A stretch of DNA of 64,000 nt from an uncultured Methanosarcinales archaeon. GTDB taxonomy: Archaea > Nanobdellota > Nanobdellia > Woesearchaeales > JACPIF01. The translations under genes and the position numbers were made by a program. Positions 9,839-60,084 of this stretch are shown here, in pieces. Location of the stretch: the NCBI GenBank assembly GCA_964602245.1, contig CAZRPY010000002.1:49833-113832 (forward strand). Direction: 5' to 3'. The notes under the pieces are model-generated. The model was not told where the DNA came from and searched no databases. It was given only the letters and a program-made list of their open reading frames with translations. Every line of letters starts with the position of its first letter. The stretch's first letter is position 1.

Positions 9839-9937
9839 TTTGTTATAGTTCTATATTTTATTTTTTATATTCTTAATTTGCCCTTGCACTTACTTTTTAT
9901 TTTAAATTATTTGCATTTAGTATGCATTTTATCTTTT

Positions 9938-10050
9938 TTATTTGCACACGGTTGCGAAAACGCAACATACATGTCCGTTTCATTGCTGTTTTAATCGTGG
10001 ATTAGCGGACTAATCGCACAGCTTGCGTAGCAAGCGTCGTTATGCAAGTT
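9938..10050 (-). repeat. GC-rich TTGCAT..ATGCAAAT-bounded structured element, copy A (reverse orientation)
   Basis: Reverse complement matches the family consensus TTGCATAACGACGC-hairpin-CTGTGCGATTAGTCCGCTAATC...GTTGCGTTTTCGCAACCGTGTGCAAAT. Lies upstream of the minus-strand ccdA. Confidence 0.6.
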
Positions 10051-21103: not shown

Positions 21104-21170
21104 ATTACCTTTAATATAAATTGGACTTTATAAATCTTTCGGTTATTTACTACTATTTAAAGACAACATA

Positions 21171-21207
21171 GATGCCCGCCTTTACTGCACGCTCGCCGCC
21201 TGAACTT
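21171..21207. repeat. right arm of nested inverted repeats
   Basis: gatgcccgccttt and gctcgccgcctgaactt; embedded in a GC-rich stretch 21165-21260 with cacgctcgc repeated. Confidence 0.55.
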
Positions 21208-21333
21208 TTTCGCTCTGCTCAAACCACGTTGCACGCTCGCTTCGCTCGGGTCGCTTAACAGGCATTCTAAAACAGCAAAATTTAAATATAAGTGTATTCA
21301 TTTGATTTAAAACGATACAGTTAAGGAGCTAAA

Positions 21334-32468: not shown

Positions 32469-32918
32469 TAATCTTACATTTAATTTGCAAAGATTTCAAA
32501 AGAATCAAATTTCTTAACAAGACTTTAGAACCAAAACATCCTATAGGTTTACAAGACCCAGAACGAGTTGATGTCTAAAACCTTTTGGGCATTAAGAAAC
32601 AATGGAACAGCTTTTAGGCTGTTACTGTAGTTGTAGAAGTAGTCATATTGAAAATTCCATATACTGCAAAAACTTTATTTTTATTATTCATCCAATATAG
32701 AAAAGATAACTTATATTTAAAATTTGCTATGGGCATGGTTAAAATAGATTTATCTGTCATATAGCAATTTTAACTTTAATTTCATATTTAAGCTCTTATA
32801 GAATTAGTTAATAAAGCTTTTCTTATGAAATGGCTATTATGCTCCAGAACGAAACGAAGTGGAGTGAGAATGCAATGGGGGGTTCGAGCCGAAGGCGAGA
32901 AAGTCCGCCGTAACCCAC

Positions 32919-33623
32919 CTATAATTCAATTTCAGATTGATTTTCATCAAGAATTTTATAAGTTATATCTCCACCACAAAATTTTTGAACTAAATCTTTC
33001 AATTCTTTTGTAGCGTCTTCAATTTCTTGTTTTGTTACAGGAAGAAGTCCCTCTATAACAAGAAAACAATTCTTTGTTTCTTCTGTAAACTTTGTCCTGT
33101 CAGCCTCACGCCAATTCCATCTTCTGCAAATTGCAGAAATATTATCCTTGTAAATAACTTCTCCTGCGTGAGGCGGTCTTGGTTCTTTATCTCCAAGGAG
33201 CAAAACCGCTGGTTCGTTTGGTTCTGCAAAGGTTAAAACAACATCTCCCTGTATTTTATCTACATCTTCGCCACCAACAGGAACCATGTGTTTAAGGGAG
33301 ATGAAATTGTAAATATCAACCAATTTATTGATATGTCTCAAATTTACTCCTTGTAGAACCAATCTATAAAGATTTTCAACAGAGGATTTGTTTTCTTTCG
33401 GTTTTGCTCCGAAAGCAGAATAGGTTTTTCTCCAAACATCTATTTTTGGAGTTTGGGACAAAGTTTCAGTATTATATTTTGCTCTGATATTGTTTTCTTG
33501 TTCTCTGATTTCTTTTTGGACTTCTTCCTGTGTTCCGGAATTGTCCAGATTTTTACAAATTACAACTCCGATTGTTGAACCGGGAAACTTCTCAAAAATT
33601 TTGTGGTCAATTTTAAATTTCAT
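32919..33623 (-). CDS. B3/4 domain protein (PheT-editing-domain-like, tRNA-binding)
   Basis: DVWRKTYSAFGAKPKE...NLYRLVLQG...VDIYNFISLKHMVPVGGEDVDKI pattern typical of B3/4 domain proteins. Confidence 0.6.
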   Translation of the reverse strand: MKFKIDHKIFEKFPGSTIGVVICKNLDNSGTQEEVQKEIREQENNIRAKYNTETLSQTPKIDVWRKTYSAFGAKPKENKSSVENLYRLVLQGVNLRHINKLVDIYNFISLKHMVPVGGEDVDKIQGDVVLTFAEPNEPAVLLLGDKEPRPPHAGEVIYKDNISAICRRWNWREADRTKFTEETKNCFLVIEGLLPVTKQEIEDATKELKDLVQKFCGGDITYKILDENQSEIEL

Positions 33624-33767
33624 GATGTTATATTATTGAGTAAGATTATAAACATTTTGCTCTTGGCGGGCGGAGGCGGATTGCATATAACCCTTGTTAT
33701 ACATACTGAACCATTGATGGTTTGCGGAGTTTTTTCTTCCAGAAAACTTATGAGTTCTGAGCTTTAC

Positions 33768-35637: not shown

Positions 35638-35750
35638 TAATTAGCATCAACGACGCCATCTACGATGGCTGTGCGAGTAGTCCACCTATCAGGGCTGTAA
35701 CAACTCATGTTGCGGACAGATATAGCAAGGTGCGAAGAAAGTGCAAAGTA
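35638..35750 (+). repeat. degenerate copy C of the TTGCAT..GCAAAT element
   Basis: ttagcatcaacgacgccatctacgatggctgtgcgagtagtccacc...gttgcggacagatatagcaaggtgcgaagaaagtgcaaag; overlaps a probably spurious 61-aa ORF. Confidence 0.5.
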
Positions 35751-35804
35751 AGAAAAATTAAAAAGTAAGATAAAAGGTGCAAATTAAGTCAATAAAAAGA
35801 AAAT

Positions 35805-40707: not shown

Positions 40708-40870
40708 AATTTGCATTAACGACGCCTCCACAAAAAATCCCTTGGATTTTTGTGTCCCAAAAATGCTTTGCATTTTTTAGGATTTCAGAGGCTGTGCGAG
40801 TAGTCCGCTTTCGGTGATGGAACTTTTCATGTTGCGGACAGATATAGCAATTGTGAAGAAAGGTGCAAAT
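40708..40870 (+). repeat. copy D of TTGCAT..GCAAAT element with expanded hairpin insert
   Basis: aataatttgcattaacgacgcc + insert with ccacaaaaaatcc/ggatttttgtg hairpin + gctgtgcgagtagtccgctttcggtgatggaacttttcatgttgcggacagatatagcaattgtgaagaaaggtgcaaat. Confidence 0.6.
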
Positions 40871-40928
40871 AAAATAAATAATAAGGAAAATAAAGGTTGA
40901 GAAATTAAGAAAGGATTAAGAAAATACT

Positions 40929-42844: not shown

Positions 42845-43101
42845 TTGCATTAACGACGCTCATTTCGAAAATCAAAGATTTTCGAGACTAGGAAATTCTC
42901 AATTTCCTATGCTACGTGAGCTGTGCGAGTAGTCCGCTTTCGATGATGGAACTTTTCATGTTGCGGACAGGTTGAAGAACTATGTTCCGAGACCTTAGGA
43001 AGCAGGGCTTCCTACAGGTTTGACAAAGTGTGAAGATACCCAAGAAAATCTTTGATTTTCTGGGCACAAAAAATCTAAAAGATTTTTTAGTGAGTGCAAA
43101 T
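42845..43101 (+). repeat. copy E of TTGCAT..GCAAAT element, strongly expanded (about 257 nt) with several extra hairpins
   Basis: cttgcattaacgacgc...gctgtgcgagtagtccgctttcgatgatggaacttttcatgttgcggacag...gtgcaaatt; inserts contain tcgaaaatc/gattttcga, aggaaatt/aatttcct, aggaagc/gcttcct, gaaaatc/gattttc stem-loops. Confidence 0.6.
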
Positions 43102-47642: not shown

Positions 47643-47755
47643 GGGCTCATAGCTCAGCCTGGTAGAGCACTTGACTCTTACTGAACCAAGTTCAGGCCTT
47701 TTGAACTGGTTCAAAAGTAATCAAGGGGTCCTGGGTTCGAATCCCAGTGAGCCCG
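47643..47755 (+). tRNA. tRNA-Lys(CUU) with 39-nt intron at canonical 37/38 position
   Basis: Manually folded cloverleaf. Acceptor GGGCTCA/TGAGCCC, D-arm GCTC-AGCCTGGTA-GAGC, anticodon stem CTTGA/TCAAG, loop C-T-CTT-A. Intron spans 47681-47719 and contains two hairpins. Variable loop GGGTC, T-arm CTGGG-TTCGAAT-CCCAG, discriminator G. CCA is not encoded. Confidence 0.7.
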
Positions 47756-48458
47756 TTTTATATTCTTGAAGTTTTAGGATGTTTTTAGGATTAGAAAATC
47801 CAATTAATTGGGTATATTGCTCTATTTTTTCGTGTCCGCTTAAGTATAAATAGTTAGTAATGTACGGACGTTTAGTAATAGAGTGTATCATTGCACAATC
47901 TGTCTTAATACTAACCTTTAATCCAAGCAAATTAAAAGCCTTTTGACAATCTTGAATAAGTTTCTTACTGGCAAAGTTAAGTTTAACGACTGGGTAATTG
48001 CGCATCTTGATTTGGAAAGAACCGTCAGAATCAATTAATCCTCTTAAACACGCTCGAATAAATTTCGTATCACTCCAAATAACGATTGGCAGTCCGATAT
48101 TATCTTTTCTGCCTCTTGGCAATCCAATAATAGTAGTATAGAATTCAAATAAACCTTTTGAGTCTCTTATCAAAGCACATGTATTTTTCTTTTTAATTAG
48201 AAAGGAGAAATTAAGATTATAAAGTTCCTTTTTTAAGTTTTTTACGTAAATTTCATAATAAGTTCTATCAGAAGTAGCATTACCATAGCATTGTATCTCA
48301 TTGGATGTTGACGTTTTCCTTATAGTTTGATGTAGGCAACCATCACCAACCATAATTCCAATATCTTCAGCGAGAGCTTCATTCATCTCTGAAGGAAGTG
48401 TGAGACCTCTCAATAAGTCTTTTCTACTGAAATTTAATCTTGATAAATCGAATTTCAT
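47721..48458 (-). CDS. free-standing double-motif LAGLIDADG homing endonuclease
   Basis: Two LAGLIDADG motifs (IGIMVGDGCLH and LRGLIDSDGSF) in 245 aa; 3' end overlaps the tRNA-Lys 3' exon antisense by about 35 nt. Confidence 0.75.
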   Translation of the reverse strand: MKFDLSRLNFSRKDLLRGLTLPSEMNEALAEDIGIMVGDGCLHQTIRKTSTSNEIQCYGNATSDRTYYEIYVKNLKKELYNLNFSFLIKKKNTCALIRDSKGLFEFYTTIIGLPRGRKDNIGLPIVIWSDTKFIRACLRGLIDSDGSFQIKMRNYPVVKLNFASKKLIQDCQKAFNLLGLKVSIKTDCAMIHSITKRPYITNYLYLSGHEKIEQYTQLIGFSNPKNILKLQEYKTGSLGFEPRTP

Positions 48459-56452: not shown

Positions 56453-56566
56453 ATTTGCATTAACGACGCCAACTTCGTTGGCTGTGCCAGTGGTCGGCTA
56501 ATCAATGAATATAACTTAGAAGAAGCCGACAGATAAGTTGCGTGTTCGCAACCGTTATGCAAATTA
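56453..56566 (+). repeat. copy G of TTGCAT..ATGCAAAT element
   Basis: caatttgcattaacgacgccaacttcgttggctgtgccagtggtcggctaatc...gccgacagataagttgcgtgttcgcaaccgttatgcaaatt; ends 43 nt before gyrB ATG; a solo aatttgcat lies at 56402. Confidence 0.6.
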
Positions 56567-56578
56567 ATTGAGTAATAA

Positions 56579-58540
<1,962 letters not shown>

Positions 58541-58597: not shown

Positions 58598-59305
58598 ATG
58601 AAAATGGTAAAACAGAAAACAGTTGGAGCTGTGGTAAGGAAGAAGAGATGGTATCCCATAATGGCTCCAAGGCTATTTAATCATCCAATTGGAGAGACTC
58701 CAGCATATGATAACAAATCTTTAGTTGGAAGAGCTATGAATATTAATCTAATGGGCCTCACTAATGATCCAAAGAAACAGAATGTTAACATAAGATTCTT
58801 AATAACATCTGCAAGCGATAGCTCAGCAAATGCTGAGCCAATAGGGTATTATATGATACCTTCCACTTTGAAGAGGCTCATGAGAAGACGCTCTGACAGG
58901 ATTGATGATTCTGTGCTTTGTGAAACAGCTGATAACATAAAGATAAGGGTAAAGACTTTTGCATTGGCAAGAAGCTTAGTAAAGGCTTCAGTCAGAACTC
59001 ATATAAGAAAGGTTGCGAGAGATTCTATAGTGAAATACGCAAAAAAGAATATTCTAATTGATTTGCTGAGTGACATTGTTTCCTATAAAATGCAGAATGA
59101 GCTGAAAGATAGTCTTAAAAAGATATATCCATTAAGAACTTTAGAGGTAAAGGCTTTAGAGATTGCAAAAGACCCGAATGATGAGAGAACAATTGTGGAG
59201 ATTGTGCAGAATATGGAAAAGACAGAAGAGCCTGAAGCTGAAATAGCAGAAGAACAAAAAGAATCAAAAAAGAAAGAAGCAAAAAAAGAAGAGGAAAGTA
59301 CTTAA
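58598..59305 (+). CDS. rps3ae: 30S ribosomal protein S3Ae (eS1)
   Basis: KKKRWYPIMAPRLFNHPIGETPAYD N-terminal signature of S3Ae; lysine/glutamate-rich C-terminal tail. Confidence 0.8.
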   Translation: MKMVKQKTVGAVVRKKRWYPIMAPRLFNHPIGETPAYDNKSLVGRAMNINLMGLTNDPKKQNVNIRFLITSASDSSANAEPIGYYMIPSTLKRLMRRRSDRIDDSVLCETADNIKIRVKTFALARSLVKASVRTHIRKVARDSIVKYAKKNILIDLLSDIVSYKMQNELKDSLKKIYPLRTLEVKALEIAKDPNDERTIVEIVQNMEKTEEPEAEIAEEQKESKKKEAKKEEEST

Positions 59306-59551: not shown

Positions 59552-59654
59552 TAACTTAATAAACCTTCTTAAGATTTATAAAGTTTTCTAAAAGATTAAC
59601 TTCCAAGTTCAAAGAAGTAAAACTTATAAGATAAGTACTATTTCTTTCTCATAT

Positions 59655-59775
59655 AGCCCCGTAGTCTAGTGGTCAAGGATAGGGCCCTCTGGCATACTTG
59701 GTATGTAGAAAGGCTCTGACGGCAGTTCGAACACAGTCTAGAAAGAATAAGCTGGCGAAAGTCTGCCCGGGGCTA
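59655..59775 (+). tRNA. tRNA with two introns, tentatively Gln(CUG); 18-nt intron after position 37 and 30-nt intron between T-loop position 60 and T-stem
   Basis: Manual fold. Acceptor AGCCCCG/CGGGGCT, D-arm GTCT-AGTGGTCAA-GGAT with two G-U pairs, anticodon stem GGGCC/GGCTC. Loop CTCTGG[intron 59693-59710]A, variable loop TGAC. T-arm GGCAG-TTCGAAC-[intron 59733-59762]-CTGCC, discriminator A. Spliced length is 73 nt and an oligo-T tract follows. Confidence 0.55.
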
Positions 59776-60084
59776 TTTTTAAGACGCCTGTGGCTACTAA
59801 GCATTTAGATTTTAATTGGGGTACCTATAGTATGTGATAGAATATTAATTAAGAATTTATTTTCTATTTTATTATATATTTGCAAATATAATTTTTAAAA
59901 TAGTTTAAATTGAATCGTATATTTCATTTTGCAACATATGTTTTATTCTAATGTATAACTAATTATTTATTGCTGTATCTGGCGATACTACTAGAACTAT
60001 TCTTGCATGCGATTAGTCTGCGACGCCTATTAAACAAAACATTTATAAAGAATATTAGCCTACTAGGAAGAATAAAAATACTAT

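Follow-up and report, generated by a model that had tools for sequence, protein, structure and literature searches.

A tRNA-Gln(CUG) gene with two predicted bulge-helix-bulge introns, at positions 37/38 and 59/60, in a Woesearchaeota-type DPANN archaeon

The canonical archaeal tRNA intron is carried in a bulge-helix-bulge (BHB) structure, the hBHBh' motif (Marck & Grosjean 2003, as cited in PMC4090602), and in the established archaeal pathway EndA cleavage within the bulges is followed by RtcB-type ligation, end trimming and CCA addition (PMC4090602). Introns at non-canonical positions, including the listed position 59/60 (PMC4090602), are found with up to three introns per gene in the Thermoproteales and some other archaea (PMC4090602, PMC4033280, PMC8450103). 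The multi-intron tRNA genes of Thermoproteales, for example Pyrobaculum and Thermofilum, go back to Sugahara et al. 2007/2008, cited here through the accounts given in PMC4033280, PMC4090602 and PMC8450103. For DPANN lineages including Woesearchaeota, Kaneta 2018 (PMC5829648) associates an L3 insertion in EndA with increased tRNA disruption and takes incomplete DPANN tRNA sets to point to undetected disrupted genes; the survey included one Woesearchaeota and one Pacearchaeota genome. Non-canonical tRNA introns have also been reported in ARMAN-2/Micrarchaeota and other DPANN (Fujishima 2011, Hirata 2012, Kaneta 2018; PMC3488258 and PMC5829648).

Here, we analysed a 121-nt locus within a 64-kb stretch of DNA (the window, meaning that whole stretch). 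This locus is very probably a working gene for tRNA-Gln(CUG), from a Woesearchaeota-type DPANN archaeon, with two protein-spliced BHB introns. The way in which such a gene would work is already known, since position 59/60, multiple introns per gene and tRNA disruption in DPANN have all been described. Among the papers covered by a literature search, none described the tRNA-Gln gene or the seven-site ortholog series.

Structure and detection of the tRNA-Gln locus

As the preliminary description had proposed, the locus folds into a cloverleaf once two segments are removed. The spliced 73-nt product was called tRNA-Gln(CTG) by ARAGORN and formed a regular cloverleaf with a 7-bp acceptor stem, D-arm, 7-nt anticodon loop, 5-bp T-stem and discriminator base (Table 1). 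Exon 1 contributes the acceptor 5' strand, the D-arm, the anticodon stem 5' strand and loop bases C32 U33 C34 U35 G36 G37; exon 2 contributes A38, the anticodon stem 3' strand, a 4-nt variable loop, the T-stem 5' strand and T-loop bases U54-A59; and exon 3 contributes U60, the T-stem and acceptor 3' strands and the discriminator A73. Reading the mature sequence, we found U8, A14, G18G19, U33 and UUCGA all present, with no encoded CCA. At 62% G+C, the exons stand out from the window (33%) and from introns 1 and 2 (33% and 43%, respectively). Upstream, an A-rich and TATA-like element (AAAAC[A/T]TATAAAA) is found at an equal distance in many orthologous tRNA-Gln genes, and the window copy would presumably work as a promoter. 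The T-run that follows A73, likewise present in most orthologs, is the likely site of transcription stop. The S3Ae gene ends 350 nt before the tRNA-Gln start.

Table 1 Coordinates of the tRNA-Gln gene, its parts and neighbours, and other features of the window
Feature	Coordinates	Strand	Description	Basis
tRNA-Gln(CUG), whole gene	59655-59775	+	121 nt; AGCCCCGTAGTCTAGTGGTCAAGGATAGGGCCCTCTGG-CATACTTGGTATGTAGAA-AGGCTCTGACGGCAGTTCGAA-CACAGTCTAGAAAGAATAAGCTGGCGAAAG-TCTGCCCGGGGCTA	
Exon 1	59655..59692	+	tRNA positions 1-37	ARAGORN cloverleaf of spliced product
Intron 1	59693..59710	+	18 nt, canonical 37/38; CAUACUUGGUAUGUAGAA	BHB register and intron-less orthologs
Exon 2	59711..59731	+	tRNA positions 38-59	
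Intron 2	59732..59761	+	30 nt, non-canonical 59/60; CACAGUCUAGAAAGAAUAAGCUGGCGAAAG	Minimum-free-energy fold, BHB register, orthologs
Exon 3	59762..59775	+	tRNA positions 60-73	
Putative BRE/TATA-like promoter	59617..59631	+	GTAAAACTTATAAGA; about -38 to -24 from mature 5' end	Read from sequence
Oligo-T run	59776..59780	+	TTTTT, directly after A73	Read from sequence
Ribosomal protein S3Ae gene	58598..59305	+	Upstream neighbour, synteny anchor; one 235-aa ORF	Pfam PF01015
tRNA-Lys(CUU)	47643-47755	+	39-nt canonical intron at 47681-47719	Rfam, 59.1 bits
LAGLIDADG/homing-endonuclease ORF	47721-48458	-	245 aa, free-standing	PF14528, PF05204
GGCTGTGCGAGTAGTCC element, four copies	35640-35785, 40763-40908, 42892-43037, 56453-56598	+		
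GGCTGTGCGAGTAGTCC element, one copy	9905-10050	-		
G+C-rich intergenic island	21167-21267		GCACGCTCGC, twice	
G+C-rich intergenic island	32861-32920		GGGGGGTTCGAGCC	
G+C-rich intergenic island	33650-33696			

The gene had been expected to escape default scanners, and it did. Default ARAGORN called no tRNA in the 64-kb window, ARAGORN with introns called tRNA-Lys alone, and Rfam on the whole window found tRNA-Lys alone, both at the gathering threshold and at E<=1. Around the tRNA-Gln locus, an Rfam search at E<=10 gave chance matches only, with nothing tRNA-like and no intron match, as expected because the T-loop intron interrupts the unspliced gene. The Rfam tRNA model (RF00005, gathering threshold 29 bits, applied to unspliced genes only) gave 53.2 bits for an intron-less ortholog and 46.9 and 49.4 bits for two orthologs with a canonical intron alone, whose mature sequences are 1-3 bases from that of the window tRNA-Gln; the model failed on orthologs with non-canonical introns.

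As a chance control, all BHB-like segments of the window, on either strand, were excised (4/4 pairs in the central helix, at least 4 bp in one flanking helix, 11-110 nt in length), and ARAGORN was applied to each product, both allowing and not allowing for a canonical intron. The 12,303 excisions gave a tRNA at two loci only, the Rfam-validated tRNA-Lys(CUU) and the tRNA-Gln locus. No further hidden tRNA was found in the window among genes that need a single BHB excision, whether or not they also carry a canonical intron, a design that genes with two non-canonical introns would escape. The 5' end of the homing-endonuclease ORF overlaps the 3' end of the tRNA-Lys gene on the opposite strand.

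Host assignment and the ortholog series

Proteins encoded in the window include an archaeal class I LysRS, ThrRS, GyrB and S3Ae. Named homologues of this S3Ae belong to Nanoarchaeota/Woesearchaeota, and an exact-sequence look-up of it gave no match. An alignment scan with S3Ae, taking one genome per species, gave 80 loci, nearly all titled Woesearchaeota, Nanoarchaeota or Nanoarchaeia, the best representative being 66% identical, so that the host organism is absent from this collection. On these sequence relationships the host is a Woesearchaeota/Nanoarchaeota-type DPANN archaeon and not of the Thermoproteales type. Multi-intron tRNA genes do occur in Thermoproteales, as the preliminary description noted; the host itself is DPANN, a group for which increased tRNA disruption had already been reported (PMC5829648). 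Many MAGs titled 'uncultured Methanosarcinales archaeon' (L009, L011, L014-L016 and others) carry Woesearchaeota-type S3Ae/tRNA-Gln loci, and the titles of this one MAG series look like placeholder taxonomy.

An independent ENA metagenome contig (L001) contains the identical 121-nt gene, which is present in ENA sample ERZ27284378. On this near-identical contig S3Ae is present as two pieces of 145 and 71 aa (L001:324-1031) in place of the single ORF of the window, which is probably a frameshift or an assembly difference. The gene order S3Ae followed by tRNA-Gln(CUG) is kept in dozens of Woesearchaeota/Nanoarchaeota (DPANN) genomes. Orthologs were obtained by spliced alignment of the 73-nt sequence to the S3Ae-synteny loci, refined with a BHB score, and the 20 synteny-derived orthologs with a good alignment were tabulated. 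The tRNA-Gln orthologs carry 0-3 introns at seven insertion sites: 10/11, 20a/20b, 20b/21, 21/22, 29/30, 37/38 and 59/60. The 37/38 intron was the most frequent (16/20), followed by D-loop introns at 20a/20b, 20b/21 or 21/22 (9/20), the 59/60 intron (6/20) and the 10/11 intron (5/20), with a single occurrence of the 29/30 intron (1/20; L002-L005/L009 type, BHB 4/3/3) and a single ortholog free of introns (1/20). A seventh ortholog with a 59/60 intron lies outside these counts, its gene being truncated by the contig end and its score falling below the alignment cut-off. Three introns were found in seven orthologs, including L040, whose contig ends within the third.

Conservation of the exons contrasted with the heterogeneity of the introns. 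When spliced, L016, L019, L025, L027, L029 and L059 all yield a single 73-nt sequence, which departs from the window product at position 16 only (C versus U in the window, the sole difference within exon 1), and the remaining orthologs show compensatory stem changes, such as GUCU/GGAU versus GUGU/GCAU. Excision thus restores the homologue sequence, the spliced product being one base from the mature consensus of orthologs with other introns. The exons remain constant while intron sequences and lengths (13-94 nt) vary freely, a pattern at the sequence level that demonstrates purifying selection on the exons only.

Several further features were observed at the ortholog loci. In L022 (L022:3250-3415), the last 17 nt of tRNA-Gln (GAATCTGCCCGGGGCTA) occur again 49 nt downstream, with a T-run after each copy; this has the appearance of a remnant left by recombination or integration at the 3' half of the tRNA. 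A leader motif, GCCCCGCT, which resembles the 5' acceptor strand, is located ~10-25 nt upstream of tRNA-Gln in all orthologs with a 10/11 intron (L010, L013, L016, L025, L051, L096). Thr-UGU, Val-GAC and Ser-GGA tRNAs (L054:4417-4528, L054:4530-4651 and L042:4449-4595, respectively) became detectable only after one non-canonical BHB excision, so non-canonical introns in these Woesearchaeota are not limited to tRNA-Gln.

The window itself contains a structured element of ~100-130 nt with the core GGCTGTGCGAGTAGTCC, present in five copies versus 0.01 expected by chance. Each copy precedes an ORF on its own strand by 100-230 nt and has two helices with compensatory changes, and the copy upstream of gyrB is kept in a relative (L006:715-958) with more compensatory changes. 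The element has no Rfam match, and candidate identities for it are an unknown type of 5' leader, a small RNA and a mobile element. The three intergenic G+C-rich islands, which stand out in this 33% G+C genome, were considered as hidden tRNAs and rejected, there being no cloverleaf and no Rfam match at any of them.

Intron boundaries and competing readings

We scanned for BHB structures in which a central helix of 4 bp has a 3-nt bulge at each end, the two bulges lying on opposite strands, with H1 as the outer and H2 as the inner helix and with cut sites after the second base of each bulge. This gave two results that fit a cloverleaf, introns 1 and 2, so that the check proposed in the preliminary description found BHB-type structures at both junction pairs. 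In intron 1, the outer helix is the 7-bp anticodon stem, the bulges are GG/C and AA/A (slash at the cut), the inner helix is a 4-bp hairpin, AUAC:GUAU, and the central helix CUCU:GUAG has 3/4 pairs (C32-G, U33-A and U35.G, with a C34xU mismatch). This register, together with an (A/U)AGAA 3' end, recurs in most orthologs with a 37/38 intron, and the C34 mismatch is common to all orthologs and the tRNA-Lys(CUU) intron of the window, which likewise has a 3/4 central helix. The equal mismatch in tRNA-Lys marks this as the usual look of canonical introns in the host.

In intron 2, the central helix UUCG(54-57):CGAA has 4/4 pairs, the outer helix is the 5-bp T-stem, and the bulges are AG/U on the 3' side and AA/C on the 5' side. 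The unconstrained minimum-free-energy fold of the T-arm gives the same succession of T-stem, bulge AGU, UUCG:CGAA, bulge AA(C) and intron hairpin. The inner hairpin is 4 bp long with one A.G mismatch before it, such that the strict H2 is 0, and a C78-G101 pair is possible; the 5' bulge departs from the strict form, in which 3 nt would lead straight into a helix. On these structural models both introns count as relaxed or near-strict BHB motifs. A metagenome scan with the pattern GGCAGTTCGAA-N(12-42)-GAAAR-TCTGCCCGGGGCTA gave 25 additional loci, and pooling the metagenome and synteny sets yields 25 distinct 59/60 introns, 17-91 nt in length. Unconstrained folding of the T-arm plus intron gave the same core in 24 of these 25 (T-stem, 3-nt bulge A(G/A)U, UUCG:(C/U)GAA). 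The pattern fixes GAAAR at the intron 3' end, so part of the central-helix conservation in the metagenome set is built in by the search; the synteny set (window, L010, L016, L025, L027, L032, L045), which is free of this bias, has the same core. In 15 of these introns, a 5' bulge of 2-4 nt leads into a hairpin of at least 3 bp, compared with 8.9% of shuffled interiors; the hairpins that serve as H2 in the relatives are 3-8 bp long and unrelated in sequence. The window architecture of 37/38 plus 59/60 was found in four distinct genes, and the 59/60 intron also occurs in tRNA-Gln(UUG) genes (L094, L098, L101, L103, L108, L113), i.e. in both glutamine isoacceptors.

For both introns, the boundaries themselves could be read in another way. 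The T-arm intron had been described as a 30-nt segment at 60/61 (59733-59762), leaving a mature T-loop UUCGAAC, and ARAGORN calls a 73-nt tRNA-Gln(CTG) from this excision product just as it does from the corrected 59/60 product. The length and the T-loop location are retained. The BHB register, however, cuts at A59/C and G/U60, a boundary shift of +1 loses the BHB motif, and UCUGCC follows 25/25 collected T-arm introns. Orthologs that lack a T-arm intron all read GGCAGTTCGAATCTGCC, which fixes U60 and thereby the intron at 59/60, and the mature T-loop is UUCGAAU rather than UUCGAAC. Placement at 60/61, very unlikely on this evidence, was rejected on the BHB register and the orthologs. For intron 1, ARAGORN -i picks a placement with anticodon CUA ('tRNA-Pyl(cta)'), and the unconstrained minimum-free-energy fold (-41.0 kcal/mol, where the structure that contains both BHB motifs comes to -28.8 kcal/mol) pairs UCUG with UAGA in a register shifted by one base from the canonical one, which would give C38. 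Against these alternatives, the canonical register yields exact 3-nt bulges with no unpaired bases opposite and is common to the orthologs and the window tRNA-Lys. Orthologs without an anticodon-loop intron read CCCTCTGGAGGCTC, fixing anticodon CUG, G37 and A38, and intron-less orthologs with an equal anticodon stem read CCCUCUGGAGGCUC, again CUG, G37 and A38. The intron-less orthologs rule out both the 'Pyl' call and the shifted register, and we consider it extremely improbable that intron 1 lies elsewhere; the 18-nt segment directly 3' of position 37 had been placed exactly from the start.

The silence of the standard detectors at the tRNA-Gln locus would also be consistent with a decaying or non-functional pseudogene in which the two insertions are never removed. 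The orthologs speak against this, since the exons are strictly conserved over many genomes while the inserts vary freely and always fall within BHB motifs, and since the syntenic place, the promoter-like element and the T-run are all kept. With just one of the 20 synteny-derived orthologs intron-less, interrupted copies represent the normal state of this gene, and there is very little chance that the locus is a pseudogene.

Two other kinds of interrupted tRNA gene were considered. Split and permuted tRNA genes, known from Nanoarchaeum equitans, Caldivirga and Cyanidioschyzon, have the logic of BHB-dependent processing in common with the tRNA-Gln gene; a split or permuted arrangement is ruled out by three collinear exons on one strand within 121 nt. 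Group I introns in tRNA genes have a self-splicing ribozyme core of >200 nt in the anticodon loop, and were ruled out by the intron sizes of 18 and 30 nt and the lack of an Rfam intron match.

As a functional gene with two BHB introns, the locus would be transcribed from the BRE/TATA-like element ~30 bp upstream into a 121-nt precursor ending at the oligo-T run. The archaeal tRNA splicing endonuclease EndA would then recognise two independent BHB motifs and cut after the second nucleotide of each 3-nt bulge. Cleavage in the anticodon arm (anticodon stem, AA/A, CUCU:GUAG, GG/C, AUAC:GUAU) would release 18 nt at 37/38, and cleavage in the T-arm (T-stem, AG/U, UUCG:CGAA, AA/C, intron hairpin) would release 30 nt at 59/60. 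By analogy with the established archaeal pathway (PMC4090602), an RtcB-type ligase would join the three exons, and RNase P and RNase Z would trim the ends before CCA addition. The predicted end product is a 73-nt tRNA with anticodon CUG, G37, A38 and T-loop UUCGAAU. Pfam found no EndA among the window ORFs of at least 150 aa, and tblastn found no EndA match in the window or any of the collected loci with an M. jannaschii EndA query; no gene for EndA or RtcB ligase was identified in these regions. The enzyme type of the host is consequently taken from the literature.

Implications and comparison with known systems

The finding leaves the known working of such introns unchanged, and its use is in annotation and in BHB models for DPANN. 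Default tRNA finders miss the tRNA-Gln gene, and in intron mode ARAGORN gives it the wrong label of a CUA 'Pyl' suppressor, hence genomes of this lineage would appear to lack tRNA-Gln(CUG) or to possess a suppressor tRNA. Should other tRNAs follow this pattern, some of the DPANN 'missing tRNA' problem would be an annotation artefact. The ortholog series supplies relaxed DPANN BHB motifs with exact splice junctions that comparison has verified. The BHB models of tRNAscan-SE 2 were built from Crenarchaeota/Euryarchaeota and Thaumarchaeota (PMC8450103), so these DPANN junctions could train intron models; they could also be used for studying substrate recognition by L3-loop EndA.

Tentatively, the Woesearchaeota-type tRNA-Gln genes may be a hotspot at which BHB introns turn over on a scale like that of the Thermoproteales 'intron explosion', a reading that we place just short of an even chance. 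Bearing on it are the seven sites and up to three introns of one orthologous gene, and the presence of 59/60 introns in CUG and UUG isoacceptors. If true, this lineage would offer a second, independent system for how BHB introns spread.

In comparison with the hBHBh' canonical intron, intron 1 is alike in its 37/38 position, the anticodon stem as outer helix, bases 32-35 in the central helix, two 3-nt bulges and an inner hairpin, but differs in the conserved C34 mismatch that leaves the central helix with 3/4 pairs. The introns of ARMAN-2/Micrarchaeota resemble those described here in coming from the same superphylum, in having relaxed BHB motifs at non-canonical positions and in the incomplete tRNA sets obtained with standard tools; a point of difference is that ARMAN-2 uses an EndA of the epsilon2 type (PMC3488258, PMC5829648). 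With the Thermoproteales genes, the tRNA-Gln gene and its orthologs share short BHB introns at canonical and non-canonical (59/60) positions, up to three per gene, invisibility to default scanners, and rapid gain and loss between relatives. However, the host falls outside the Thermoproteales type, being a Woesearchaeota-type DPANN archaeon of low G+C content (33%), and these lineages have, according to PMC5829648, an alpha4-type EndA with an L3 loop rather than an (alpha-beta)2 enzyme with a Crenarchaeal loop.
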